From Candidatus Cloacimonadales bacterium (GTDB lineage: Bacteria > Cloacimonadota > Cloacimonadia > Cloacimonadales > JAFGVF01): a stretch of 64,000 nt of DNA. The position numbers and the translations under genes are program-made. Within the stretch, counting starts at the first letter, position 1. Each line of letters begins with the position of its first letter. The notes beneath the pieces are model-generated. The model was not told where the DNA came from and made no database searches. It was given only the letters and a program-made list of their open reading frames with translations. This document shows, in pieces, positions 36,643-51,715 of the stretch. The DNA is taken from the NCBI GenBank assembly GCA_963677495.2, contig CAXXOU010000004.1:544001-608000 (forward strand). Direction: 5' to 3'.

Positions 36643-39354
36643 ATGAAGAAGATCCTGACGCTATTTATTTTTATAACTATCTTAACTTCTATGTGGGCTC
36701 ATATGACCTATTATGAGACTACTTTAACTCAACCTGACGGTACTGAGTTTGAAGTTACAATAACCGGTGACCAGTACTTTCGTTCAGTTGCGGATAAGGA
36801 GAATTATACTCTTATTGTTGAACCTAAGACAGGGGAGTGGATGTATGCAATGAAAGGAAGAGATGGTTTAGTACCAAGTCCTTACAAACAGGGTACTATT
36901 GACCCATCTACTATAGGAATTGAACCCGGTTTAGCATACTCAACGAATCAGATAAATAAGAGAGTTGATGAGATGGAAGAGTTCTATTCTGCTAACAGCC
37001 AGTCAAGGACACCAAATACAGGTACTTTCAATAATCTTGTTGTCTTCATACGCTTTTCCGGTGAATCTGAGTTTAATCAGACACTTAGTACATACACAGA
37101 TATGATTAGTGATACAACTCCCGGTGCTAACTCCATGATTAACTTCTTCCAGGAAGCTTCATACAACCAGTTAACTATCCAATCACATTACTATCCACCT
37201 ACTTCAACAAGTTACGTTGTCTCTTATCAGGATACATATCCAAGAAGTTATTTTCAACCGTATAGTGGTTCGAACACTAATGGTTATAACGGAGATGATG
37301 AGCGTGGAGAGCGTGAATTTGCACTCTTACAAAGAGCAGTGAACTATATCGACAGCTATGTCCCTACTTCATTGAACATTGATGCAGATAACGATGGATA
37401 TGTAGATAATATTGTGTTTATTGTTAAAGGTAACACAGACGGTTGGTCAGACCTTTTATGGCCACATAGATGGGTGTTATATGGATTGAATGTATATCTT
37501 AATGGGGATAGAGTTTGGGACTTCAATTTCCAGTTACAAAATCATTTAGTTAGTAGCGGTAACGGCGTTATGTGTCATGAAATGTTCCATTCAGTCGGGG
37601 CTCCTGACCTTTATCACTATAGTCAGGACAATATGGATCCTGTGGGACAATGGGATCTTATGGAGGCTACAACTAATCCGCCACAACACATGTTGATGTA
37701 TATGAAATACAGGTATGGACTTTGGGTTAATAATATACCTGAAATTACAACAAGTGGAACCTACACATTAGCTCCAAGCATGGATAGTGCGAATAACTGC
37801 TATAAGATAGCTTCGACGGACTCAGATGAATACTATGTTTTAGAGTATCGCAAAATGGAAGGAACCTTCGAGAGTAGTTTACCCGGTGAAGGTCTGGTGA
37901 TTTATAGAATCAATACAAATGTTGATGGAGAGGGTAATAGAAATGGTCCTCCGGATGAAGTATACGTTTATCGTCCAAACGGAACTTTAACTGCAAATGG
38001 TAATTCAAGTGCAGGTGTCTTCAACGCATCTTATGGAAGAACCGAGATTAATGATTACACAAATCCAAACGGTTTCCTTTCTGACGGTTCACTAGGTGGT
38101 TTAAACATATCACAAGTAACAACAGCGGGAAATACTATATCATTCTATGCTAATATTGGTGGAACAGGTGCACCAGATGTATCAGTATCACCAACTTCAT
38201 TATCAGCATCTCTACCCCCTGATGCAACTGGTACTCGAACAGTTAGAATTACCAATAATGGTACTGCACCGTTAACTTATAACATTAGCCTACAAGATGG
38301 AACCAGGAACTCAGGTGGTCCAACAACTAGTGGTTACTACTGGCTTGATAGTGCTGAAGCTAATGGACCTGCTTATGTCTGGAATGATATAAGTTCAAGT
38401 GGAACAGAGATTAACTTCACATCAGATGACCAGATCTCTTCAACTATCAACTTAGGTTTTAGTTTCCCATATTACGAAAATAGCTATTCATCTCTAGCAG
38501 TATGTGGTAATGGTTTCCTTAGTTTCTCAGGTACAGATACAGAGTGGAGTAATGAGGATATACCTGATAGTAGTACACCAAATAGTTATATTGCTCCTTT
38601 CTGGGATGATTTAAGTCCACAACAAAGTGGTTCAGTTCATTATTATAGCGATACTGTCAATCAGCGCTTTATTGTACAGTTTACAAATGTACCGCATTAT
38701 TACACTGTAACCGGAACATATACTTTCCAAGTTCACCTGTATGCAAACGGTGAAATCTATTTCTACTATAACAATATGCAAGATACTGTTGATAGTGCAA
38801 CAATTGGAATGGAGAACAGTGATGGCTCTGAAGGTCTTAAGATTGCTTATAATCAAAGCTATGTAACTAACAATAGAGCAGTTCTTATCAGTAATGTTAA
38901 TTTCATACAAGATGATGTTGATTGGGCTGATGCAACTCCAACTGTTGGATCAATAAACCCGAATCAGTATGAGGATGTTACTATTAATATTGATACAGCA
39001 GGACTGAGTGCCGGTAGTAATTATACAGCATCAATTGTGATTAATTCCAATGATAGTGATCAACCATCGATTACTGTACCATTATACCTAGCAGTCACAG
39101 GTTCCTTGGATGCACCTGCAAACGCAACTGCAAGAGTAGTCAATGGACAGATGCAACTGAAATGGTCACCGGTAGCGGGAGCAAGTTCCTATAACGTGTT
39201 TATGCAGAACCCAAGTAATGGTACTTATTACAACAGAAATACTTATGGTACTTTTGGCACAGAAGGTGGTTATGTGACTTGGACAACTATCTTCAACTTA
39301 GGAAATGTCAGTTGGGACAGAGCTTTCTTCTACATTAAAGCAGTAGCTGAATAG
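36643..39354 (+). CDS. Secreted M6-family (immune inhibitor A-like) metalloprotease with a nidogen-like domain
   Basis: Signal peptide; TQPDG propeptide; HEMFHSVGAPDLY (HExxHxxGxxD); VGQWDLM Met-turn; EYYVLEYR; IAPFWDDL. Confidence 0.9.
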   Translation: MKKILTLFIFITILTSMWAHMTYYETTLTQPDGTEFEVTITGDQYFRSVADKENYTLIVEPKTGEWMYAMKGRDGLVPSPYKQGTIDPSTIGIEPGLAYSTNQINKRVDEMEEFYSANSQSRTPNTGTFNNLVVFIRFSGESEFNQTLSTYTDMISDTTPGANSMINFFQEASYNQLTIQSHYYPPTSTSYVVSYQDTYPRSYFQPYSGSNTNGYNGDDERGEREFALLQRAVNYIDSYVPTSLNIDADNDGYVDNIVFIVKGNTDGWSDLLWPHRWVLYGLNVYLNGDRVWDFNFQLQNHLVSSGNGVMCHEMFHSVGAPDLYHYSQDNMDPVGQWDLMEATTNPPQHMLMYMKYRYGLWVNNIPEITTSGTYTLAPSMDSANNCYKIASTDSDEYYVLEYRKMEGTFESSLPGEGLVIYRINTNVDGEGNRNGPPDEVYVYRPNGTLTANGNSSAGVFNASYGRTEINDYTNPNGFLSDGSLGGLNISQVTTAGNTISFYANIGGTGAPDVSVSPTSLSASLPPDATGTRTVRITNNGTAPLTYNISLQDGTRNSGGPTTSGYYWLDSAEANGPAYVWNDISSSGTEINFTSDDQISSTINLGFSFPYYENSYSSLAVCGNGFLSFSGTDTEWSNEDIPDSSTPNSYIAPFWDDLSPQQSGSVHYYSDTVNQRFIVQFTNVPHYYTVTGTYTFQVHLYANGEIYFYYNNMQDTVDSATIGMENSDGSEGLKIAYNQSYVTNNRAVLISNVNFIQDDVDWADATPTVGSINPNQYEDVTINIDTAGLSAGSNYTASIVINSNDSDQPSITVPLYLAVTGSLDAPANATARVVNGQMQLKWSPVAGASSYNVFMQNPSNGTYYNRNTYGTFGTEGGYVTWTTIFNLGNVSWDRAFFYIKAVAE

Positions 39355-40553: not shown

Positions 40554-43136
40554 ATGAAAAAGATTGTATTGTATATTCTATGTTTAATGCCTTTAATATT
40601 ATATTCAACAATTTGGCATGTGAATCAAGATGGAACAGGAGATTTCGTTTCTATCCAAGCTGCTGTGAACAATGCGAATAATGATGATACAATTTTGATT
40701 CATGAGGGTGTCTATTATGAACATGTGCAAACAAGTAACAAACCTTTAACATATGCAAGTTTATTCTATCTGGATAGTGATGAATCGCATATTGGTAATA
40801 CAATTTTGGATGGGCAACACTCGCATCCGCTAATGACACATGATAATGATGTTTTCGGGAGTAACATATCCATTATTGGGTTAACATTTAGGAATGGGAA
40901 TAGAGAGGAAGCTACAGATACGTACTGTGGCGGAGGTGCTATAGGAGTTCAAAGAGCTACGCTTACATTAAACGACTGTAGTATTTACAATAACTATGGG
41001 ATTATTGGAGGTGGAGTATTCACTCGAAACTGCCAAGTCTTTCTTGCTGGTAATTCGATAAGAAATAATAGAGCGTTTACTGCAGGTGGTGGTGTATCTT
41101 TTATCTTTAATGGAGGAGATAGTTATCCAGTCATCTTTGATGGAATTAATTTGAATAGTTTTTACTCAAATCTTTGTTGGTTTGGTACTGATATGAATCT
41201 TTATCAAATCAATGAGGAACACATCAGCGAGATTGTAGCAGATACTTTGAGTGTTGCAGAATACGATAATTACTGCAATGTTGTAAAAATAAGATTAGGA
41301 TCAACACACAGTAACCTTCCAGTTAATGCAAATACTGAAACTCTTCCTCGTGTTGAGTCCAATCTTTATGTTGCTCCTTGGGGTGATGATAATAATGATG
41401 GGTTAACATCTTTTTCTCCTTTCAAGTCGATAATGCAAGCGTGTATGATTATTTCTCCTAGAGTTGATAGTACTCTAATTATATATTTGCTACCTGGAGA
41501 ATATAATAACTCTAATCAAAGATGTCTACCTGTAAACGTAAGAGATAATACTATCATTTCAGGAGAATCTCCAGAAACAACTATCATCAATTGTGACCAG
41601 ATGACTAGTGCTTTTATTAACAGAGTCGGATCATGCAATTTTGAAATTGAGAATCTATCAATAATAAACTGTAGTGTCGGTGCTGATAATTATTATTCTT
41701 CTATTAGTCTTAATACTTCTCAGTATCCATCAAAAGTTAAAATTCGAAACTCCAAATTTTATAATGACTACATGTATCAAAGCACAGAAGCTCAATTTTA
41801 CGTTAATGTTGTCGGTGTCACGTTGGATATATGTGATACAGAATTTGGTAACGAAAACTTGGAAGCCTTGATTCCTCAAAAATCTGTCTTTTGTAATGAA
41901 GACTATTTTTCTCAAGATTTTAACAGTATAAGTAATTGCACATTTTATGGGCAAAATGAGACTATTTGTTTTAGTTCTCAATTCAATTCGAACTTGCTCA
42001 TTTCAAATTGTTTATTTGATTATTCTCAAACTTATAACTACGAGGCAGATCCGTTTCTTGTGAGATATGGAATAGCAATTGAAGGAAAGGTTGATGCTAA
42101 TATTATCAATAATACATTTTACGGAAATCATCCAGCTGGGCAATTAGATGGTCTAATTACGATCATATATTCAAATTATGATACAGGTGGGAATAATGTT
42201 AATGTTAAAAATAATATAATGATTGATAATTTTACTCCTACCAGTAATAACTCAGTGTATGTAGATAATCACTATGGTCCTTGGGCAACAAATGTTAATG
42301 TAGGTAACAATTTAGTCTTAGGAGGGGAAAGCACAGTTGGTTATCCCAATTGGGAAGAAGTGACTTTTAACTACGAAGATACGAACATTGATACAATACC
42401 TCATTTCACAGGATATGGAGTAAACAGATTTATGCTGGATGATGATTCTCCTTGTATAGATGAAGGTACACTGAATCTACCTGATGGATTCGAACAACCT
42501 GAAACTGATTTGGTAGGTAATCCTCGTGTGCATGGTGAGAGTATAGATATGGGTTGTTATGAATGGCAAGGGAATGTAGCTGATTTCACAATGCAGGCAA
42601 TGGGGAATGTGTTCCCTATTGATGTTGTGTTTACTCCACACTACAACTTCCCAATTGATACAATTGCCTGGGACCTTGATCTTGATGGTGTGATTGATAG
42701 CTATGAGATGAATCCAGTCTGGTCATATCCTGATTTCTCTGGACATAATGTTGGCATGTACATAAATGATGGGGAAGCTATTGAGATTAAGTATGACTGC
42801 ATACAGCCTACTACCCCGATATTAGAAGAAACGAACGATACACCTGAAGCTAATGAGTTATTAGCTTGTTATCCTAATCCCGTGCGAATCTCAACTGGTA
42901 ATGTTATACTGAAGTACAATGTCAAAGATGTTGGAAACGCAGAGTTGAAGGTATACAATATCAAAGGTCAAATGGTGAAATCCATTAAGGTTAAAAGTCA
43001 ACGTAAAGGGCGTAATACTATCTTCTGGTATCTTACTGATAATCGGGGTGTGCATGTCTCTTCGGGAGTGTATCTCTACAATCTTGAACAGAATGGTGAA
43101 AGTATAGGTAAAGGTCAGATAACGGTGGTGAAATAG
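40554..43136 (+). CDS. Secreted parallel beta-helix (pectin-lyase-like/DUF1565) protein with PKD-like and FlgD/T9SS-like C-terminal domains
   Basis: Signal peptide; DGTGDFVSIQAAV, GGGAI/GGGV repeats, LYVAPWGDDNNDG..PFKSI, SPCIDEG...IDMGCYE, YPNP...VYNIKGQ...SSGVY. Confidence 0.8.
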   Translation: MKKIVLYILCLMPLILYSTIWHVNQDGTGDFVSIQAAVNNANNDDTILIHEGVYYEHVQTSNKPLTYASLFYLDSDESHIGNTILDGQHSHPLMTHDNDVFGSNISIIGLTFRNGNREEATDTYCGGGAIGVQRATLTLNDCSIYNNYGIIGGGVFTRNCQVFLAGNSIRNNRAFTAGGGVSFIFNGGDSYPVIFDGINLNSFYSNLCWFGTDMNLYQINEEHISEIVADTLSVAEYDNYCNVVKIRLGSTHSNLPVNANTETLPRVESNLYVAPWGDDNNDGLTSFSPFKSIMQACMIISPRVDSTLIIYLLPGEYNNSNQRCLPVNVRDNTIISGESPETTIINCDQMTSAFINRVGSCNFEIENLSIINCSVGADNYYSSISLNTSQYPSKVKIRNSKFYNDYMYQSTEAQFYVNVVGVTLDICDTEFGNENLEALIPQKSVFCNEDYFSQDFNSISNCTFYGQNETICFSSQFNSNLLISNCLFDYSQTYNYEADPFLVRYGIAIEGKVDANIINNTFYGNHPAGQLDGLITIIYSNYDTGGNNVNVKNNIMIDNFTPTSNNSVYVDNHYGPWATNVNVGNNLVLGGESTVGYPNWEEVTFNYEDTNIDTIPHFTGYGVNRFMLDDDSPCIDEGTLNLPDGFEQPETDLVGNPRVHGESIDMGCYEWQGNVADFTMQAMGNVFPIDVVFTPHYNFPIDTIAWDLDLDGVIDSYEMNPVWSYPDFSGHNVGMYINDGEAIEIKYDCIQPTTPILEETNDTPEANELLACYPNPVRISTGNVILKYNVKDVGNAELKVYNIKGQMVKSIKVKSQRKGRNTIFWYLTDNRGVHVSSGVYLYNLEQNGESIGKGQITVVK

Positions 43137-43138
43137 AT

Positions 43139-43179
43139 AATAGCCTATAGCCTAAAGCCTAAAGCCTAAAGCCTATAGC
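43139..43179. repeat. Heptamer tandem repeat (AGCCTAW x5-6)
   Basis: atagcct atagcct aaagcct aaagcct aaagcct atagc immediately after the stop codon. Confidence 0.85.
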
Positions 43180-43251
43180 TGGAGCGGTCGTCTGATGAAA
43201 GTATACTACCTTGAGAATAGTCCTAAGACCTTCTCAATGCTCAGGAAGATG

Positions 43252-43430
43252 TGAATCGCATCGAAGTGCCTGAGAAGCCGTAGCTGATAGGCGAAGGGTC
43301 TTGATTCGCTAATTCCGGTATTCGAAGCCCAATTCGTTCTCACCCCACACTTTGTTGCGGTGCAAGTCCGAGATAGTTTCTTCGAAGTAGACTATTCCCG
43401 AAGGTCTAAATATCATTGGAAAGTAAAGAC
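43252..43430 (+). repeat. Direct copy of the element at 40189-40365
   Basis: Identical 27-mer gcaagtccgagatagtttcttcgaagt at 40299-40325 and 43362-43388, plus flanking homology. Confidence 0.9.
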
Positions 43431-43433
43431 ATT

Positions 43434-43464
43434 AAAAAAGCCTACCGGCAATGTCGATAGGCTT
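43434..43464 (-). terminator. Terminator downstream of tRNA-Leu
   Basis: Minus strand agcctatcgac-att-gccggtaggct-ttttt. Confidence 0.75.
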
Positions 43465-43470
43465 AAGCTT

Positions 43471-43560
43471 TGGTGCTGAAGAAGGGACTTGAACCCCCAC
43501 GTCCTAATTTCGGACACTAGAACCTGAATCTAGCGTGTCTACCAATTCCACCACTCCAGC
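43471..43560 (-). tRNA. tRNA-Leu(CAG)
   Basis: Minus strand GCTGGAG...GGAATTGGTAGAC...CTAGA-TTCAGGT-TCTAG, long variable arm, GGTTCAAGTCC T-arm, CTTCAGC-A-CCA. Confidence 0.95.
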
Positions 43561-43759
43561 ATGAGTGTATTACAGATATTTTTGAACCCTTACTATGTCA
43601 ATAGAAATCTTAACAGTAAAATAGCTACTAATCACTTTGATTATAGGTCAGAGAGTATTGATAGTGAACTAATTTCAATAATATATCAGATTTTCCTTGC
43701 AATATAAAAAATCATAGTGAAAATACGTATTACCAAATCTATAAATCTGTGAGGTGACT

Positions 43760-45043
43760 ATGAGTGAAGCTTTCAATGCCTTTGAGATGGTTCAAAAGCA
43801 ATTTGATTCTATTGCTGATAAACTTGATTTGAACAGTGCAGCAAGAGATTTTCTGAGAAACCCTATGCGAGAATACCATTTCCTTATTCCTGTTAAGATG
43901 GATGATGGTTCAACCAAAGTGTTTAAAGGTTTTAGAATTCAGCACAATGATGCTTTAGGCCCAGCTAAAGGAGGAGTTCGATTTCACCCACTAGAAACAG
44001 TTGATTTAGTCAGAGCTCTAGCAATGTGGATGACTTGGAAAACCTCAGTTGTAGATCTGCCTTTAGGTGGGGGATATGGGGGTGTTATCTGCGATCCTCA
44101 CCATTTATCAATGAGAGAACAGGAGCTGATATGTCGAGGTTGGGTTAGACAGCTTGGTGATAATATAGGACCGTTGAGGGATATACCGGCACCTGATATT
44201 ATGACTTATAGTCAACATATGCTGTGGATTCTTGATGAGTATGAGATGATGCATGGGAAGAAACTTCCGGGTATGATTACAGGCAAACCTGTAGAGTTGG
44301 GTGGTTCATTAGGTAGGACAGAATCGACAGGATACGGACTGATGTTTACAGTACGGGAAGCATTAAGAGAATTAAAGATTCGACCTGATACTACAACAGC
44401 TGTGTTCCAGGGATTTGGTAATGTAACACAACATGCGATTAAGCTTTATAACCAATTAGGTGGTACTGTTCTAGGTGTATCCTCCTGGAACCCTAAACAG
44501 CATACTGCAACACTATATATGAAACCGGAAGGAATAAACCTGAAAGAACTTCAAGAGATAACAGATAGATTTGGAAGCATTGATTGTGATAAAGCTGAAG
44601 AGTTGGGCTATGAACTACTTCCCGGTGACAAATGGATTGAACAGGAATGTGATATACTTGTTCCTTCAGCATTAGAAAACCAGATTACTGTGGAGAATGT
44701 CGGACTCATCAATAAACAGGTTAGAATAATAGCTGAGGGAGCAAATGGACCAACAAGTCCTGCTGCAGACGATATTCTCATGGATAGAGGAATCTTCGTT
44801 ATCCCTGATGTTCTTTGTAATGCCGGTGGAGTTACATGTAGCTATTTCGAGCAGGTTCAGTCAAACATGAACTACTACTGGTCTAAGGATGAAGTTATCA
44901 GCAAGCTGGATGTTAAACTGACTAAAGCATACCATAAGGTTGCTGAACTAGCTCGAAGGAAAAAGCTTTATATGCGTGAAGCAGCCTATATGATCGCAGT
45001 TGACAGAGTAGTACGGGCAGCACAAGAAAGAGGGTGGATATAA
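43760..45043 (+). CDS. Glu/Leu/Phe/Val dehydrogenase homolog, probably catalytically inactive (catalytic Lys replaced by Tyr)
   Basis: GPAKGGVRFHP, MTWK, PAPD, ITGKP..LGGS.GR, EGANGP, NAGGVTCSYFE retained; GG(A/G)KGG reads GGGYGG (TAT at 44075-44077); alternative GTG start at 43754. Confidence 0.9.
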   Translation: MSEAFNAFEMVQKQFDSIADKLDLNSAARDFLRNPMREYHFLIPVKMDDGSTKVFKGFRIQHNDALGPAKGGVRFHPLETVDLVRALAMWMTWKTSVVDLPLGGGYGGVICDPHHLSMREQELICRGWVRQLGDNIGPLRDIPAPDIMTYSQHMLWILDEYEMMHGKKLPGMITGKPVELGGSLGRTESTGYGLMFTVREALRELKIRPDTTTAVFQGFGNVTQHAIKLYNQLGGTVLGVSSWNPKQHTATLYMKPEGINLKELQEITDRFGSIDCDKAEELGYELLPGDKWIEQECDILVPSALENQITVENVGLINKQVRIIAEGANGPTSPAADDILMDRGIFVIPDVLCNAGGVTCSYFEQVQSNMNYYWSKDEVISKLDVKLTKAYHKVAELARRKKLYMREAAYMIAVDRVVRAAQERGWI

Positions 45044-46782
45044 TGAATGAGAAAATGAAATCAGGTCAAAGATTTGATAGATTAAGTGGATTCTTTTCAG
45101 ATACTTTCAGCTACATAGGTAGGGGAGAACCGGGAGGTAAAGCTTCGGGTTTAGCATTCATGCAGGATGTTATTAAGAAGAGATTTCCTGATAATGAGTT
45201 TGATGGAATTAAGATCAATATCCCGAGTATGACAGTTCTCCTTAGTGGTGTATTTGAAGATTTTATGGAGGATAACAATCTCTATGAAATAGCACTTTCT
45301 GATGCGTCTGATGTAGAGATTGCTCTTGAGTTTCAAAGAGCTTCATTAGGAGCAATATACACCGGTGATCTTAGAAGCATTATTGAAAGCATACACCAAC
45401 CTTTAGCTATTCGCTCTTCAAGTATCTTCGAGGATTCAATAGACGACCCCTTTGCCGGTGTCTATGAAACTAAAATGATACCTAATAATCAGATAGATAA
45501 AGATCAAAGGTTTAGAGTATTAATGGAAGCAATTAAGTTTGTATATGCTTCTCTCTTCTTTAAAAACTCTAAGGAGTACTTTCTCTCATTAAACAGAGAT
45601 ATTCGTGATGAGAAGATGGCAATCATAATTCAGGAAGTTGTTGGTAATAGGCATGGTGACCTTTTTTATCCTACAATCTCCGGTGTTGTTAAATCGTATA
45701 ATTTCTACCCAACAAACAATGCAACTCATGAAGAAGGGATAGCTACACTTGCTCTTGGTTTGGGGAAAACCGTTGTAGAAGGGGAGAAGGCTTGGAGTTA
45801 CTCACCTATGCACCCAACAGCACCACCCCCATTTAACAATAATCACGATATATTGAAATACACACAAACTGAGTTCTGGTCAATAAATATGAATCAGGTT
45901 TGCTGTTACGACTCTACTCAGGAGACTGAGTATTTAAGCTACCAATCAATTTACGATGCCGAAGAACATGATACACTTAAGCATATCTGCTCTACGTTCG
46001 ATAGTTTAAACGATAGAATAACTATAGGAACTGCGTATGCCGGTTCACGAATCATTGACTTTTCACCCCTGCTCAAGCTTGACATGATACCTTTGAATCC
46101 TCTTATCAAAGAGTTAATGAAGGTTTGCGAAGAGGAGAGTGGAAATAAGGTCGAGATGGAATTTGCGATGACAATTGATCCTGAAGGATATGATAAACCA
46201 AGGTTTGGATTTCTACAGCTAAGACCAATAAGTATTAGTGATAAGATTGTTGATATTAACGAGAAGTTGTACAATGCAGATAATATGCTCATTAAATCAG
46301 AACAAGTAATGGGAAATGCACAGATTGATAGTATAATTGATATTGTGTTTGTGAAACCTGATTGCTTTGACCCAAAAGCGTCTTTAGAAGTTGCTATGGA
46401 CCTAGCTGAGATAAATGCTGAGTTGATACAGAACAAGAAGCAGTACCTTCTAATGGGATTTGGCAGATGGGGAACATCTGATCCTTGGATGGGAGTACCG
46501 ATTAAATGGTCTCAAATATCAGGAGCAAAAGTCATTGTTGAAGCAATCTTACCTCAAATGAGATTTGATTTCAGTCAGGGATCACATTTCTTCCACAACA
46601 TGACAGCTCATAATGTTATATATTTCTCAGCAAATCTGGAGATGAGTAATGCTATAGACTGGGATTGGCTGAAATCTCATGAAGTTATTGAAGAAACAGA
46701 CTATATTCTTCATGTACGAACGAAGAAACCAATAGAAATATATGCAGATGGGCGTTCGGGTAAAGGAGTAATTCTTAAATGA
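45043..46782 (+). CDS. PEP-synthase/PPDK-type ATP-grasp protein with divergent phospho-His swivel domain and no pyruvate-binding domain
   Basis: GGKASGL, AIRSSS..ED....FAG.Y, IQEVVG, GLG..VV, VEMEFA, FLQLRPI; C-terminal AKVIVE...QGSHFF; start overlaps the gdh stop (TAATG). Confidence 0.85.
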   Translation: MNEKMKSGQRFDRLSGFFSDTFSYIGRGEPGGKASGLAFMQDVIKKRFPDNEFDGIKINIPSMTVLLSGVFEDFMEDNNLYEIALSDASDVEIALEFQRASLGAIYTGDLRSIIESIHQPLAIRSSSIFEDSIDDPFAGVYETKMIPNNQIDKDQRFRVLMEAIKFVYASLFFKNSKEYFLSLNRDIRDEKMAIIIQEVVGNRHGDLFYPTISGVVKSYNFYPTNNATHEEGIATLALGLGKTVVEGEKAWSYSPMHPTAPPPFNNNHDILKYTQTEFWSINMNQVCCYDSTQETEYLSYQSIYDAEEHDTLKHICSTFDSLNDRITIGTAYAGSRIIDFSPLLKLDMIPLNPLIKELMKVCEEESGNKVEMEFAMTIDPEGYDKPRFGFLQLRPISISDKIVDINEKLYNADNMLIKSEQVMGNAQIDSIIDIVFVKPDCFDPKASLEVAMDLAEINAELIQNKKQYLLMGFGRWGTSDPWMGVPIKWSQISGAKVIVEAILPQMRFDFSQGSHFFHNMTAHNVIYFSANLEMSNAIDWDWLKSHEVIEETDYILHVRTKKPIEIYADGRSGKGVILK

Positions 46783-49700
46783 TCCATAGTGGTAACAACC
46801 ATAATCAGTTGGAATCTCAGTTAACAGAAAGACGTAAAGAACTTGCTTGTATCCATAAGATGATAGAAATAACATCTGATTACTCTTCAGACTTTAGTGT
46901 TATATTTAATAGAATACTAGAGATTATCCCCGCAGGATGGCAGTATACTGATACCTGCTTTGCAGAGATTGAGTATATGAATAGTATATACTGTCTTCGC
47001 AAAGATCTTACACCAAAGTATTCCCAACAGAAGTCCTTGAGTATGAATGACAACTATTTCGGTGAGATTAAAGTCTACTACTCTGAAGTTCCCAAAGGCT
47101 TCGAAATAGCACCATTTCTTGATGAAGAGGTAGCATTACTTAGTACTTTGGCAGAGATGTTATCAACATATCTAGTTGTCAGAACTTTTACAGAGAACCT
47201 TGAAACACCTGGGACAAATCCAGAGCTGGAACATAAAGATTGGAAGATAGTACTCAAAATGCTCCAGGATACGGATTATAGATTGTATCTAAAAGTAGCA
47301 CGCAAGTTGATTAACCTTCTTTATCAAAGAGGTATCCCAGAAGTTAAGGAGATATACTACTCTACAGGAATAACAAGATCAGAATCTGACTCAGAGGATA
47401 TCCTCGATGCAAACAAACCTTTGAAAAAGCAAGATTATCTTGATATGGAGGTTGTTAGTAAGAAGGTGTTCGAAATCGCTGAGAATTGTTTACCGAATGA
47501 GGAAGTTCTTGAGTATATTCATAAATGGATTCAAGAGGATAAGTTAAGTTTCCTAATCACTGCATTAGAGGATAAGTATACGTCTCTTGCCGAGCTACAA
47601 GATGTGATTGCAAGATATCAGCATCTTAAGATAAGCAAGGAGAGCTTATCACCATATTCTCAGTTAAATCTGAAAGTGTTACTTATTCAACGACTCTTTA
47701 CATCGCAGTTAGAATTTATTAGAATAGCAAAAAATTACATCCAGATAGAAGATTTCTATGATGTACTTCAACATACTATTTCTCCAAAGAACTCTCATGG
47801 AAGATTAGGAGGTAAAAGTACCGGTTTATTCTTCGCGCATAATATCATAAAGAGCGAGACAGACCTTGAATTTCAGAAAGGTATAAAGACCCCCAAGAGT
47901 TGGTATATAACTTCTGACGCCATGCAGTCTTTTGTGCACTATAACAATCTAGAAGAGGTTATTGAACAGAAATATAAGGATATTGAGCAGATAAGGGCTG
48001 AATATCCCAATATTGTACAGATGTTCAAGAACTCCTATTTCCCACATGATATTGCTAAAGAGCTTTCCCAAGCTCTTGATTCATTCGGAACTTCACCAAT
48101 AATTGTCAGAAGCTCATCATTATTGGAAGATAGTTTTGGTACATCCTTTTCCGGAAAATATAAAAGTCTATTCTTAGCTAATCAGGGCAATAAAAAGGAA
48201 AGGTTAAGTGCTTTAATGGATGCCATTGCTGAAGTATATGCTTCTGTAATTGCTCCTGATCCTATCGAGTATCGAAAGGACCATGGACTTGTAGACTTCC
48301 ATGAAGAGATGGCTATCATGATTCAAGAGGTTGTTGGCACAAAAGTAGGAAACTATTTCCTTCCTGCTTTTGCAGGAGTAGCATTCTCCAATAATGAGTT
48401 CAGATGGTCACCTAGAATCAAAAGGAACGATGGTTTAGTAAGATTAGTTCCGGGCTTAGGGACTAGGGCAGTAGATAGAGTCAGTGATGATTATCCTGTT
48501 TTAGCTTCACCGGGACAGCCTGGTATTAGAGTTAACGCTTCACCGGATGAGATACTAAAATATTCACCTAAGTTCCTAGATCTGATAAATCTCGAAACTA
48601 ATACTTTTGAAACTCTCCCAATTCAAAAAGCACTGAAACTGTTTGAAGATGATTTCCCAATGCTAAACAGAATCTTTAGCGTTAATGAGAATGGTTTTAT
48701 TCACCAAAAAGCAGTATTCAATATTGACTTTGAGAAAGATGACTTAATAGTTACCTTCAGGTCTTTGATGACTGATACAAATTTTATGAAACGGATAAAG
48801 AGAATCTTAGATGTTCTTGAAGACAAAATGTCAACTCCAGTGGATATTGAGTTTGCAGTAATCAACAATGATATCTATCTTCTTCAATGCAGACCTCAAT
48901 GTTTCTCTAAAGAGGTTGAGCCTGCTCCAATTCCTCAGGATATTCCGGAAAAAGAGATTCTGTTTACAGCTCGAAAACATATCTCCAATGGCAGAATCCC
49001 GGAAGTGACACATCTTGTTTATGTAGACCCTACAGAATATACACAGTTAGAGACCTTAGAACAGTTAAAATCTGTTGGTAGGTGTGTCGGAGAGTTGAAT
49101 TCGGTTCTACCAAAGAAGAAATTTATACTGATCGGGCCCGGGAGATGGGGAAGTAAAGGTGATATTAAACTGGGTGTTGATGTCTCCTATTCTGAAATAA
49201 GCAATACATCTGCCTTAATTGAGGTGGCTAAAGAACAAGCAAGCTTTGCTCCTGATCTTTCATTTGGTACTCACTTCTTTCAAGATCTTGTAGAATCAAC
49301 AATTAGGTACATCCCCTTATATCCAGATGAGAAGGATAATGTCTTTAATACTGAGTTCTTCAAGAAGAGTGAGAGTATACTTCCAACCTTGTTACCGAAA
49401 TACTCTGAGCTAGGGAACTGTATAAAAGTTATAGATATTCCGAAAGAAACTGATGGTAATGTACTTAAAATCTTTATGAATGCTGATTTGGAACAGGCAA
49501 TAGCATATTTTGGCGTAGCAGATAACCGAAAAAGAAGTTCAAGTAAGGCTTATTATGAAGATGAAAATACTGATAACTTCTGGTTATGGAGATTACAAAT
49601 GGCAGAATTTCTTGCCTCACAATTAGATGCTAAAAGATATGGTGTGGTTAATTTATACATTTTTGGTAGCGTTAAAAACGCTACTGCCGGACCGGGTAGT

Positions 49701-49940
49701 GATATAGATCTTTTGGTTCACTTCAGAGGAAACGAGATTAAAAAGCAACAGTTACTAGCATGGTTTGATGGATGGAGTAGATGTCTTGGTAGAATGAATT
49801 ACCTAAGAACCGGTTATAAAACTGATGGTCTTCTTGATGTACACATCATAACGGATCAAGATATCTCTGACAAAGACAGCTTTGCAATCAAAATTGGGGC
49901 TGTAACTGATGCAGCAAAACTACTTAAGGTGCGCAAATGA
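46779..49940 (+). CDS. Multidomain protein: GAF-like sensor + PPDK-type ATP-grasp + phospho-His-like domain + pol-beta nucleotidyltransferase
   Basis: N-terminal ERRKELACI...IPAGWQY...GEIKVYY...PFLDEE; LGGKSTGL, VRSSSLLED...FSGKY, DIEFA, LLQCRP; FGTHFFQ; C-terminal IFGSVKN......SDIDLLV...LLDVH; ATGA overlap. Confidence 0.85.
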   Translation: MIHSGNNHNQLESQLTERRKELACIHKMIEITSDYSSDFSVIFNRILEIIPAGWQYTDTCFAEIEYMNSIYCLRKDLTPKYSQQKSLSMNDNYFGEIKVYYSEVPKGFEIAPFLDEEVALLSTLAEMLSTYLVVRTFTENLETPGTNPELEHKDWKIVLKMLQDTDYRLYLKVARKLINLLYQRGIPEVKEIYYSTGITRSESDSEDILDANKPLKKQDYLDMEVVSKKVFEIAENCLPNEEVLEYIHKWIQEDKLSFLITALEDKYTSLAELQDVIARYQHLKISKESLSPYSQLNLKVLLIQRLFTSQLEFIRIAKNYIQIEDFYDVLQHTISPKNSHGRLGGKSTGLFFAHNIIKSETDLEFQKGIKTPKSWYITSDAMQSFVHYNNLEEVIEQKYKDIEQIRAEYPNIVQMFKNSYFPHDIAKELSQALDSFGTSPIIVRSSSLLEDSFGTSFSGKYKSLFLANQGNKKERLSALMDAIAEVYASVIAPDPIEYRKDHGLVDFHEEMAIMIQEVVGTKVGNYFLPAFAGVAFSNNEFRWSPRIKRNDGLVRLVPGLGTRAVDRVSDDYPVLASPGQPGIRVNASPDEILKYSPKFLDLINLETNTFETLPIQKALKLFEDDFPMLNRIFSVNENGFIHQKAVFNIDFEKDDLIVTFRSLMTDTNFMKRIKRILDVLEDKMSTPVDIEFAVINNDIYLLQCRPQCFSKEVEPAPIPQDIPEKEILFTARKHISNGRIPEVTHLVYVDPTEYTQLETLEQLKSVGRCVGELNSVLPKKKFILIGPGRWGSKGDIKLGVDVSYSEISNTSALIEVAKEQASFAPDLSFGTHFFQDLVESTIRYIPLYPDEKDNVFNTEFFKKSESILPTLLPKYSELGNCIKVIDIPKETDGNVLKIFMNADLEQAIAYFGVADNRKRSSSKAYYEDENTDNFWLWRLQMAEFLASQLDAKRYGVVNLYIFGSVKNATAGPGSDIDLLVHFRGNEIKKQQLLAWFDGWSRCLGRMNYLRTGYKTDGLLDVHIITDQDISDKDSFAIKIGAVTDAAKLLKVRK

Positions 49941-50809
49941 TAAAAGCTTTGTTTACTTCTGATTTACATGGAAACGAGTTTAAGTACGAGTTCTTGTTTG
50001 AAAACATAGTAAAGCACGTACCGGAAGCTGTGTTTATCGGTGGGGATATTCTGATACCATTTAGCAAGATTAAAGACCAGATATCAGGTAAATCTGATAG
50101 TTTTCTGAACGATTACCTGAGAGTTGAGTTGCTTAAGTTAAAAGAACGATTAAGGAATAAATATCCTGAAATATATGTGATAATGGGTAATGATGATAAT
50201 AAATTTTCTGAAGAGATACTTGATAGCAAGATGTTCGAAGGACTATTGCATTATTGTCATTTCAAGAAGCTTAAGTTTAAAAATTGGGAAGTAGTAGGAT
50301 ATAACTTTGTACCACCAACTCCGTTCATGAATAAGGATTGGGAGAAATTCGATGTATCAAGATTTGTGGATGTTGGATGTTTAGCTCCTTTTGATGGTTA
50401 TCATGACCCTTCAATACCGGAGTATGACCTTAAGTTCTCAACAATCAAAGAAGACTTTGAAACTCTGTTTGATGAAGTAGATACATCCAAATTAATTCTA
50501 TTAGCTCATACTCCACCATATAAATCTAAACTTGATAGGGCTGACCTGGATGGTGTGATGGTTGATCATGTTCCACTTGATGTTTACATAGGATCTATAG
50601 CTCTTCAACGTTTACTTGAAAAACAGAAGTTCTACTTAACGCTTCATGGTCACGTTCACGAATCGACGAGATTAACAGGTGATTATCAGGACACGATTGG
50701 TGAGAACCTATCTATGAATGGTGCATCAGAGCACAATGAAGCAAGTATCATTCTTTTCGATTTGGAGAATCCTACTGAATCTACGAGATTAACTAAGCTT
50801 AAGCCTTAA
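49937..50809 (+). CDS. Calcineurin-like metallophosphoesterase
   Basis: SDLHG, GGD, GNDD, AHTPP, HGHVHE motifs; ATGA overlap with the upstream gene. Confidence 0.9.
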   Translation: MIKALFTSDLHGNEFKYEFLFENIVKHVPEAVFIGGDILIPFSKIKDQISGKSDSFLNDYLRVELLKLKERLRNKYPEIYVIMGNDDNKFSEEILDSKMFEGLLHYCHFKKLKFKNWEVVGYNFVPPTPFMNKDWEKFDVSRFVDVGCLAPFDGYHDPSIPEYDLKFSTIKEDFETLFDEVDTSKLILLAHTPPYKSKLDRADLDGVMVDHVPLDVYIGSIALQRLLEKQKFYLTLHGHVHESTRLTGDYQDTIGENLSMNGASEHNEASIILFDLENPTESTRLTKLKP

Positions 50810-51287
50810 TCTTTTGTCCCCAAATCTCCTGTATTTTATGGGCTATTGGGAGCTTTACATGAAATGGTAGCTTTATATGGTTTGGTCGCATAGTAAGAAA
50901 CAGCCATTTGTGCTCAATTATGTTAAATGCTGCTGTAATATCCCATAGAGGTGGGACAACAACGACGACGTTTTCACCAACTCTTTGAAGTTCATTATAA
51001 GAAGCTACCGGGTCGTCCACGTGCTCTATTGTATGAGAACATAGAACATGCTTAAACTGCTTGTCTTTGAATGGAAGATTTGTAATATCATCCACATGAA
51101 CGTAGTTCGGAAGTTCAATATGCTGAACGATATCAGCGTTGATCCCTCCGCCATCTGTTTTCCCGCAACATATATTCAAATCCCACCTTCTACTTTTAAG
51201 AACCTTGTTTTTTAAAATTCGGTAACTAATAATGTTTGTAATATAAAACATAGCGATTACAGACAGGACAATAATTAGGATTAGCAT
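50799..51287 (-). CDS. Small membrane-anchored methyltransferase type 11-like protein
   Basis: N-terminal TM helix; LNICCG, LPFKDKQF..VLCSHTIEHVDDP...ELQRV. Confidence 0.75.
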   Translation of the reverse strand: MLILIIVLSVIAMFYITNIISYRILKNKVLKSRRWDLNICCGKTDGGGINADIVQHIELPNYVHVDDITNLPFKDKQFKHVLCSHTIEHVDDPVASYNELQRVGENVVVVVPPLWDITAAFNIIEHKWLFLTMRPNHIKLPFHVKLPIAHKIQEIWGQKIKA

Positions 51288-51715
51288 AGATTAGCTCCTT
51301 TCAAAGTTTTAGTGAACAAAATGTATTTTCTGGAGAAGAATGAGAAAAGAAAGACAATAGCATTACTGATGAACTTACTTAGTAGATAATGCAAACTTAA
51401 CACTGATGTAAAGTACCACATCGATATAAGGTTCATTATTAGGGAAACCACTCCAATCAATAGATAGATAAGCAGTTCAAATCTAACATGATGTTTTCCT
51501 TTAGGGAAAATGTAACATTTAGAGATTATATAGTTTGTTAGTTGACCTGTAATAAAGGCAGGAGTCGCTGCAACAAGATAGTGAAGATTACACAGTTCAT
51601 GGAGAAGATATAGAACAAGATAGTCTGCAAGAATTGCTCCACTACCAAGAGTTATGTATCTCCACAACTGCAAGCCTGTATGATGTGTTTTGTTTATAAA
51701 TATCTTCTTTATCAA
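51281..51715 (-). CDS. GtrA family membrane protein
   Basis: 4 TM helices; QLWRY..G......DY, NY.ISK.YIF, YLLSK....FFSRKYILF. Confidence 0.85.
   Translation of the reverse strand: MIKKIFINKTHHTGLQLWRYITLGSGAILADYLVLYLLHELCNLHYLVAATPAFITGQLTNYIISKCYIFPKGKHHVRFELLIYLLIGVVSLIMNLISMWYFTSVLSLHYLLSKFISNAIVFLFSFFSRKYILFTKTLKGANLC

Follow-up and report, generated by a model that had tools for sequence, protein, structure and literature searches.

A glutamate dehydrogenase-linked operon of a Cloacimonadales bacterium as a candidate ATP-driven phospho-histidine and nucleotidyl regulatory module

In this work we examined a four-gene operon located in a stretch of 64,000 nucleotides (hereafter, the window) from a Candidatus Cloacimonadales bacterium (GenBank assembly GCA_963677495.2, contig CAXXOU010000004.1, positions 544,001 to 608,000; all positions below are those of the window). 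The operon encodes a homologue of glutamate dehydrogenase (GDH), two proteins with dikinase-type ATP-grasp domains (G2 and G3, the products of genes 2 and 3) and a metallophosphoesterase. With moderate confidence, we interpret it as the local copy of a widespread and uncharacterised GDH-centred module, in which ATP-driven phospho-histidine and nucleotidyl chemistry would act on or through GDH. The parts of this module come from known superfamilies, and it is their combination that is uncharacterised and widely conserved. The core of the module consists of a short hexameric-type GDH and G3, while G2 and the metallophosphoesterase are the usual companions.

Organization of the operon

The four genes correspond to plus-strand open reading frames (ORFs) at 43754-45043, 45034-46782, 46779-49940 and 49937-50809 in the ORF list of the window. 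A preliminary description of this DNA had proposed that they are coupled by TAATG/ATGA overlaps, and all three junctions indeed read as claimed (TAATG at 45041-45045, ATGA at 46779-46782 and at 49937-49940). The probable start of gene 1 is the ATG at 43760, preceded by AGGTGA, with the ORF itself opening at the GTG at 43754; that of gene 2 is the ATG at 45043. Gene 1 (43760..45043) encodes a short hexameric-type GDH homologue, in which the catalytic lysine is replaced by Tyr108 (codon 44075..44077). Gene 2 (45043..46782) encodes 579 residues from its ATG, as does the database copy of the gene, and comprises a PPDK-type ATP-grasp domain and a C-terminal His-carrier-like domain (46240..46779, residues 403-582 counted from the GTG at 45034), in which the codon of H518 lies at 46585-46587. 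Gene 3 (46779..49940, 1053 residues) encodes an N-terminal input domain (residues 14-162, 46818..47264), a helical region, an ATP-grasp domain (residues 342-724, 47802..48950), a His-carrier-like domain (approximately residues 745-925, 49011..49553, which aligns with the G2 domain; codon of H832 at 49272-49274) and a C-terminal minimal pol-beta nucleotidyltransferase (NTase, 49590..49937). Gene 4 (49937..50809) encodes a calcineurin-like metallophosphoesterase.

Conservation and co-occurrence of the module

Homologues of G2 were found in Cloacimonadota, Ignavibacteria, Calditrichia, Zixibacteria and Bacteroidota, and the records of the nearest relatives belong to Cloacimonadales metagenome-assembled genomes and to Candidatus Zophobacter. 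A wider scan with one genome per species returned 201 relatives of G3, and the 80 best loci were retained. The G3 orthologues in these loci are 45-87% identical and come from many phyla; the module is distributed over Cloacimonadota, Calditrichota, Ignavibacteriota, Acidobacteriota, Spirochaetota, Lentisphaerota, Kiritimatiellia and others. The family defined by the carrier-like domain is much larger and comprises 2,382 representatives at 50% identity (E <= 0.001), or 737 at E <= 1e-30.

The gene order is also conserved. In nine loci from other genomes of the order, GDH, G2 and G3 were always found together (9/9) and the phosphoesterase accompanied them in six. Among the loci with at least 3.3 kb of sequence upstream of G3, an operon-type GDH lies upstream in 49/60 and G2 in 44/60; when at least 1.4 kb was required, GDH or G2 was present upstream in 65 of the 71 loci. 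The arrangement GDH-G3 without G2 occurs in Melioribacteraceae, Spirochaetota and a part of Calditrichota. Among the 53 loci in which G3 is complete and followed by at least 1 kb of sequence, 36 have a phosphoesterase homologue, which lies directly downstream on the same strand in 24 of them and is a convergent neighbour in eight. We also noticed that Melioribacteraceae carry a conserved gene of about 149 codons after G3, in place of the phosphoesterase.

The link between G3 and its GDH extends to whole genomes. Among 121 genomes of the order, this type of GDH and G3 were both present in the same 34 and both absent from the other 87 (GDH query, E <= 1e-60; G3 query, E <= 1e-100). These genomes are related and thus not independent; counted by genus, 16 of 49 have both. 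The GDH match is 63-100% identical in 33 of the 34 genomes, and in the remaining one (G045) it is only 36% identical and lies on another contig. The conserved synteny on which the preliminary description had made its reading depend was therefore found, both as an order of genes kept across phyla and as a perfect co-occurrence of GDH and G3.

Dikinase-type ATP-grasp domains without an acceptor domain

Both G2 and G3 match the PPDK_N family (PF01326), with E 3.5e-28 for G2 (residues 34-404) and E 4.4e-64 for G3, and the lysine of the GGK motif of G3 (K346) is invariant in all 29 sequences. The AF2 model of the whole G2 protein (pLDDT 85.7, pTM 0.83) matched best to rifampin phosphotransferase 5hv1, both in Foldseek (E 5.6e-14) and in VIA (Z 25.7), and the further fold matches, obtained through the ATP-grasp part, were HpeI (9goj; Foldseek E 3.8e-10, VIA Z 19.4), phosphoenolpyruvate (PEP) synthase (2ols) and PPDK (1dik). 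Together with Pfam, these folds place the ATP-grasp domains of both proteins with the N-terminal domain of PPDK and PEP synthase. No match to the PEP-utilizers family or to the PEP/pyruvate TIM-barrel families was found by Pfam in either protein: G2 stops after the carrier-like domain, and G3 runs on into the NTase. The preliminary description, in which G2 and G3 were ATP-grasp proteins with a His motif and no PEP/pyruvate-binding domain, is thus confirmed by the Pfam results and by the conservation of the histidine reported below. In the source databases, homologues of G2 are named 'PEP/pyruvate-binding domain-containing protein' or 'hypothetical', and the NCBIfam models of PEP synthase gave only weak partial matches (PEP_synth, 73.9 versus a cut-off of 739.75). 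A full-length PPDK is encoded elsewhere in the genome of the window, as indicated by a genome scan with PF00391.

In three of the best representatives (P0125, P0126 and P0127), G2 and G3 are fused colinearly into proteins of 1523-1654 residues with two ATP-grasp and two carrier-like domains each. These are predicted proteins from assemblies, and readthrough or a gene-calling artefact may explain them; taken at face value, the fusions would argue that G2 and G3 are partners, and count in favour of the regulatory module.

The shared C-terminal domain

The C-terminal domain common to G2 and G3 is marked by the motifs G[FP]GRWG[ST] and S.G[ST]HFF, which read GFGRWGT and SQGSHFF in G2 and GPGRWGS and SFGTHFF in G3. 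Pfam searches with the isolated domains (E <= 10) gave no PEP-utilizers match and assigned no family. For the domain alone a probable fold could be proposed: its AF2 model (pLDDT 89.1, pTM 0.88) was compared by VIA with 48,161 PDB representatives, and the His-carrier domains of PPDK, rifampin phosphotransferase, Bacillus pyruvate kinase and Enzyme I made up seven of the ten best rows, with Z from 7.0 to 5.5. These were the phosphoryl-carrier domain of PPDK 2fm4 (Z 7.0, 116 residues aligned, root-mean-square deviation 3.8), the swivel domain of rifampin phosphotransferase (residues 756-865, Z 6.9), the C-terminal domain of Bacillus pyruvate kinase (residues 475-581, Z 6.9), maize PPDK 1vbg (residues 377-510, Z 6.7) and three entries of Enzyme I (Z 6.1, 5.7 and 5.5).

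The domain carries an invariant histidine: H518 of G2 in 42/42 homologues, H832 of G3 in 29/29, and the equivalent residue in all 38 domains of a mixed set from G2, G3 and paralogues. In the domain-only model it sits at the N-terminus of a helix, which strengthens the assignment of the domain as a carrier.

Input domain, nucleotidyltransferase and phosphoesterase

Residues 14-162 of G3, with the motif ERxKELxC..GWQ, match sensor regions of histidine kinases (blastp E 3.6e-12 to 5e-10), and domains of this type were found in 13 kinases encoded in G3 loci as well as in six kinases from the loci of receiver-fused paralogues of G2 and G3. Pfam gave no match for residues 1-340 of G3, and a language-model atlas, queried with residues 1-335, returned only the protein's own family and a weak lead to GAF (score 0.80, with GAF annotated on 20% of the members of one cluster). 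The name 'GAF-like', given to this region in the preliminary description, is thus at most a candidate label.

At the other end of G3, residues 938-995 match NTP_transf_2 (PF01909) and Polbeta (PF18765), and the isolated NTase piece gave E 1.2e-8 and E 1.5e-6 for these two families. Its motif, GS..SDIDLLVH..LLDVH, contains the GS, the DxD pair and the third carboxylate of pol-beta nucleotidyltransferases, in agreement with the C-terminal GS..DxD nucleotidyltransferase predicted earlier. The GlnE and GlnD families were absent from the Pfam and NCBIfam matches. Gene 4, which had been proposed to encode a calcineurin-like phosphoesterase, does match Metallophos (PF00149) with E 3.3e-9, and its translation contains DLHG, GGD, GNDD and GHVHE, which we take to be the metal-binding motifs. 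Sequence searches of the PDB with the NTase piece and with the phosphoesterase gave marginal matches only.

Signalling context and receiver-fused paralogues

In many loci of Cloacimonadota, genes for a histidine kinase of the HisKA type and for an NtrC-type (sigma-54) response regulator flank the operon. Around the called start of GDH, we scanned 350 nt upstream and 90 nt downstream for -24/-12 elements with at most one mismatch, and found sigma-54-type sites in 11 of 48 loci versus 13 of 800 random stretches; the regulator was present in the locus in eight of these 11.

The family also includes a third class of paralogues, of about 1000 residues, which combine receiver-like domains, a DUF5752-like stretch, an ATP-grasp domain and the same carrier-like domain. 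They are present in most genomes of the order, and the G2 query found a family member in 35 of 41. In eight of the 20 regions fetched around such a paralogue it directly adjoins a GDH of class I, and in six of these eight regions a sigma-54 regulator is encoded as well, together with a kinase that shares the sensor domain. This arrangement amounts to a second conserved module in relatives (L135, L138, L139, L143, L145 and L146), in which a class-I GDH and two receiver-fused paralogues in tandem are accompanied by a sigma-54 response regulator and by a histidine kinase whose sensor domain is of the G3 type. In acidobacterial loci both arrangements, the operon GDH and the class-I GDH with a receiver-fused paralogue, occur side by side. 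The genome of the window has a third paralogue of 987 residues outside the window (locus L018, 3994-6957; contig G000:C4, at about 1.35 Mb), with receiver-like, DUF5752-like, PPDK_N and carrier-like parts; it has no adjoining GDH, whereas its orthologues in relatives adjoin one.

The two classes of GDH linked to the dikinase-like family are only about 30% identical to each other. One family tied to two GDH classes, with one type of input domain, is therefore our strongest argument for a regulation directed at GDH rather than a metabolic role. The idea of a signalling module, put forward in the preliminary description, is accordingly favoured by the G3 input domain shared with adjacent kinases and by the receiver-fused paralogues; not supported as described is the inactive GDH, which cannot be a defining component.

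Loss of the catalytic lysine in the operon GDH

The product of gene 1 matches both Pfam domains of the GDH fold, ELFV_dehydrog_N and ELFV_dehydrog (E 3e-67 and 2e-49), and its closest solved structures are the Pyrococcus and Thermococcus GDHs 1gtm and 1euz (E ~4e-117) and Bacillus RocG and GudB. Where its relatives have PLGG[GSA]KGG, gene 1 reads PLGGGYGG; both fold domains are present and the catalytic lysine of GGGKGG, as claimed earlier, is not. However, this loss cannot define the module, since the lysine is retained in 45 of the 53 operon-type GDHs of at least 420 residues; the other eight carry methionine (6/53) or tyrosine (2/53, from the window and from a second genome of its genus), and a seventh methionine-type copy (L089) was excluded from this set due to its short ORF. 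The lysine-less GDH is real but derived, a feature of this genus (K to Y) and of one acidobacterial clade (K to M).

The maximum-likelihood tree places the tyrosine pair and the methionine group in separate clades, which indicates that the lysine was lost at least twice independently, two being the minimum number of changes. The tyrosine pair is nested in a fully supported clade of 13 rows of lysine-type GDHs from Cloacimonadota, and both lysine-less groups are on long stems (0.41 and 0.58). The two groups also differ in what else they have lost. The GDH of the window retains most of the other residues that are near-invariant in lysine-type GDHs, including the lysine of GP.KGG and the asparagine of GFGNV. 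In the methionine clade, this substrate lysine is also replaced by tryptophan (K72W), and the asparagine of GFGNV is lost as well. The K-to-M loci of the acidobacterial type are L074, L077, L080, L083, L087, L089 and L094, and the substitution of the substrate-binding lysine is found in all of them except L089, where the short copy is unaligned. In L074, L080, L089 and L094 the methionine-type operon GDH directly follows a class-I GDH and a receiver-fused paralogue.

In the comparison of the window with its congener, GDH shows proportions of nonsynonymous and synonymous differences (pN and pS) of 0.091 and 0.85, and pN is similar for G2 (0.097) and G3 (0.083); pN and pS are given instead of dN/dS due to the saturation of synonymous sites (pS 0.79-0.85). 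The low pN against saturated pS shows that the lysine-less GDH gene is maintained by purifying selection. The genome of the window encodes two further GDHs, both of class I, both with GGGKGG and both located elsewhere; no active GDH of the same class as gene 1 was found in it. The derived loss of the lysine suggests that the GDH protein has a role in the module for which catalysis is not required.

Surroundings of the operon

Directly upstream of the operon, on the minus strand, lies a tRNA-Leu(CAG) gene of 90 nt (43471-43560, identified by Rfam), which confines the promoter region to about 190 nt. The non-coding stretch between it and gene 1 (43561..43759), presumed to hold the promoter, contains no sigma-54-type -24/-12 element, and Rfam found nothing besides the tRNA over 42900-43800. 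Throughout the window, 31 sigma-54 sites were counted, which is not above shuffled sequences (mean 23.8; 31 was reached in 9 of 100). The base composition of the operon resembles that of its surroundings.

The genes on the 3' side are convergent and unrelated. Two small minus-strand ORFs (50799-51715) encode a methyltransferase-domain protein of 162 residues, which the Pfam models match with their C-terminal half only, and a membrane protein of GtrA-like type; neither is related to the operon in other genomes. On the 5' side, a gene for a protein with a type IX secretion system (T9SS) tail (40554-43136) is followed just 3' of its stop by a short run of GCCTAAAGCC-like units (43141-43180), and then by about 280 nt of non-coding DNA up to the tRNA gene (43180-43460) without an Rfam match at the gathering threshold. 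Further upstream, a plus-strand ORF of 903 codons (36643-39354) had no Pfam match at E <= 0.01.

Proposed mechanism and its weak points

We propose that the ATP-grasp domains would use ATP to phosphorylate the carrier histidine (H518 in G2, H832 in G3), as is the case in PPDK, PEP synthase, rifampin phosphotransferase and VadK, a dikinase-derived protein of Mycobacterium tuberculosis. Since neither protein has a domain for a small-molecule acceptor, the phosphoryl group would be handed to a protein, with GDH or the G2/G3 partner as the most likely recipient. A nucleotidyl mark would be added by the NTase and marks would be removed by the phosphoesterase; the input domain of G3, upon sensing a ligand, would gate the activity, in a manner comparable to the receiver domains in the paralogues. 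The outcome would be a post-translational switch on, or through, GDH as target or partner. In this genus the K108Y GDH is under selection and two ordinary GDHs are encoded elsewhere; its most likely role is therefore to bind a ligand, without catalysis, as a partner or target of G2 and G3.

A more elaborate version of this proposal may be sketched tentatively, and we regard it as possible rather than probable: a covalent control cascade for GDH in anaerobes of many phyla, in which a sensor-gated phospho-His relay derived from dikinases would be combined with a nucleotidyltransferase and a phosphoesterase acting as eraser, as a functional counterpart of GlnD/GlnE/PII aimed at GDH, with the GDH subunit turned into a dedicated non-catalytic receptor in some lineages, including this genus.

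Several observations weigh against the GDH-centred regulatory module. The lysine-less GDH has no activity to regulate, and on/off switching of GDH therefore cannot by itself explain the module in this genus or in the K-to-M clade. The C-terminal domain of G2 and G3 is probably a divergent swivelling phospho-His-carrier fold, with modest scores: Foldseek with the domain model found nothing at E <= 0.001 (best E 0.021), the PF00391 scan of the whole genome at E <= 10 recovered the true PPDK and a second protein of 546 residues but neither G2 nor G3, and hhalign of a 133-sequence domain alignment with 29 carrier domains of PPDK and Enzyme I, a set of low diversity, gave a probability of 0.1. With modest fold scores and no relation at the profile level, the carrier assignment is therefore made by fold and position only. 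The accessory parts are dispensable, as G2 is absent upstream of G3 in 16/60 loci, GDH in 11/60, and the phosphoesterase is absent from 17/53. The NTase motif, intact in 26 of 29 G3 orthologues, is degenerate in three (L051, L073 and L092), yet in these the ATP-grasp lysine and the carrier histidine are invariant. In the genome of the window no kinase/regulator pair adjoins the operon, and a search with the G3 query did not find a second copy of the input domain. Finally, neither an experiment nor a direct computation has shown modification or contact among these proteins; a complex prediction for GDH and residues 730-1053 of G3, supplied as alignments, scored 0.00 in two runs without controls and counts neither for nor against contact.

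At the level of sequence, homology between the carrier-like domain and PEP-utilizers was found neither by Pfam nor by the PF00391 scan or hhalign.

Alternative explanations

The GDH-fold protein could be a sensor or regulatory partner, responding to glutamate, 2-oxoglutarate or NAD(P)H, that controls G2 and G3, with the output directed at other proteins, such as further enzymes of nitrogen metabolism or the class-I GDHs. That the catalytic lysine was lost twice from a gene still under selection would fit such a role, as would the ligand-binding residues retained in the GDH of the window and the two canonical class-I GDHs in the same genome. An inactive regulatory GDH subunit is known in Thermus, namely GdhA (PMC9570180). 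However, 45 of the 53 operon GDHs have the lysine and look like working enzymes, the K-to-M clade with its K72W and lost GFGNV asparagine is poorly suited to sensing glutamate or NAD(P)H, and the conserved set encodes no other candidate target. We consider this explanation unlikely.

Another explanation is a multi-subunit dikinase for a small molecule, in which G2 and G3 would provide the ATP-grasp and His-carrier parts and the GDH fold the acceptor site, for an ATP-coupled step at bound glutamate or 2-oxoglutarate. Split dikinases are known, e.g. HpeHI and phenylphosphate synthase. The appearance of HpeI among the best fold matches of G2 agrees with this possibility, and the perfect co-occurrence with one GDH type together with translational coupling would suit a stoichiometric complex. 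Nevertheless, it leaves the NTase, the sensor domain shared with kinases and the receiver-fused paralogues unexplained; two GDH classes of only about 30% identity are paired with the one family; and the loss of catalytic and substrate-binding residues in some lineages would alter or abolish the chemistry. In our opinion it is rather improbable.

It is also conceivable that these are ordinary metabolic genes under common regulation, a GDH beside central-carbon enzymes of the PEP synthase kind, which is what the names in the source databases and the weak partial NCBIfam matches would imply. We find this very hard to maintain, as the PEP/pyruvate domain is absent, the NCBIfam score is far below its cut-off, a full-length PPDK is encoded elsewhere in the genome and the co-occurrence of the module with one GDH type is strict.

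An anti-phage defence or toxin-antitoxin element built around a minimal nucleotidyltransferase (MNT-type) was rejected and has next to no chance of being correct: the PADLOC matches, to the candidate systems PDC-S09 (NTase motif, E 1.4e-8) and PDC-S10 (phosphoesterase, E 1.2e-6), are at the level of motifs and span just the 40-55 residues of the NTase motif, the MntA match is weak (21 bits versus a cut-off of 60), a HEPN partner is absent, the genes keep their order around a housekeeping enzyme from phylum to phylum, and the base composition is like that of the surroundings.

Significance

GDH stands where carbon metabolism meets that of nitrogen, and for anaerobes that ferment amino acids, such as Cloacimonadota, it is a main catabolic entry. 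The literature we searched, with subscription-only papers outside it, contained no description of this gene combination, of the divergent carrier domain or of the repeated loss of the GDH lysine, no post-translational control system of this kind for a bacterial GDH, and, among papers on DUF5752, GDH pseudoenzymes and PPDK_N-only proteins, no description of the module. If the GDH-centred regulatory module is real, its presence in thousands of protein clusters would fill a gap in the control of bacterial GDH. It would likewise extend the emerging idea, derived from VadK, that truncated dikinases with just the ATP and His domains serve as regulatory kinases. The repeated turn of GDH into a lysine-less protein offers a natural experiment in the conversion of an enzyme into a regulatory subunit. 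As for annotation, 'gdhA + ppsA' is unsuitable for these genes.

Comparison with known systems

PPDK, PEP synthase and rifampin phosphotransferase (5hv1, 2ols, 1dik and 1vbg) share with G2 and G3 an ATP-grasp fold, followed in G2 and G3 by what is probably the same swivelling carrier fold. The matches of the ATP-grasp fold to these dikinases range from Foldseek E 5.6e-14 to 7.6e-8, with VIA Z of 25.7 and 13.3. In contrast to these enzymes, G2 and G3 lack an acceptor domain, be it a TIM barrel or a domain for rifampin, the sequence of their carrier domain is unrelated at the profile level, and their NCBIfam scores are about one tenth of the cut-offs.

In nitrogen control, nucleotidylation cycles are run by GlnE and GlnD, and PPDK is controlled by PDRP. 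The module resembles these systems by analogy and not by homology, in that a pol-beta NTase and a reversing activity would set the state of a central nitrogen enzyme. It differs from GlnE and GlnD in that its NTase is minimal and MNT-like, without a match to their families, and in that the reverser would be a metallophosphoesterase.

In Thermus thermophilus, GdhA is a catalytically inactive GDH paralogue retained as a regulatory subunit (PMC9570180). The GdhA/GdhB hetero-hexamer (3aoe), chains of which are among the PDB matches of gene 1, is thus comparable in having an inactive GDH that was retained. However, the window contains no adjacent active GDH of the same class, the partners here are dikinase-like proteins, and a hetero-oligomer would be hypothetical.

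VadK (Rv1127c) of M. tuberculosis is a PPDK reduced to the ATP and His domains, which is reported to autophosphorylate on His422 and, rather than making PEP, to bind enzymes of the methylcitrate cycle (10.1101/2025.10.30.685616). G2 agrees with it in architecture, with an ATP domain, a probable His-type domain and no PEP/pyruvate domain. VadK keeps a recognisable PPDK His domain, whereas the carrier domain of G2 and G3 can be recognised by its fold only. Moreover, G3 adds an input domain and an NTase, and the partner here is GDH, whereas the partners of VadK are the methylcitrate-cycle enzymes. VadK is the closest functional precedent for the proposed mechanism of the module.

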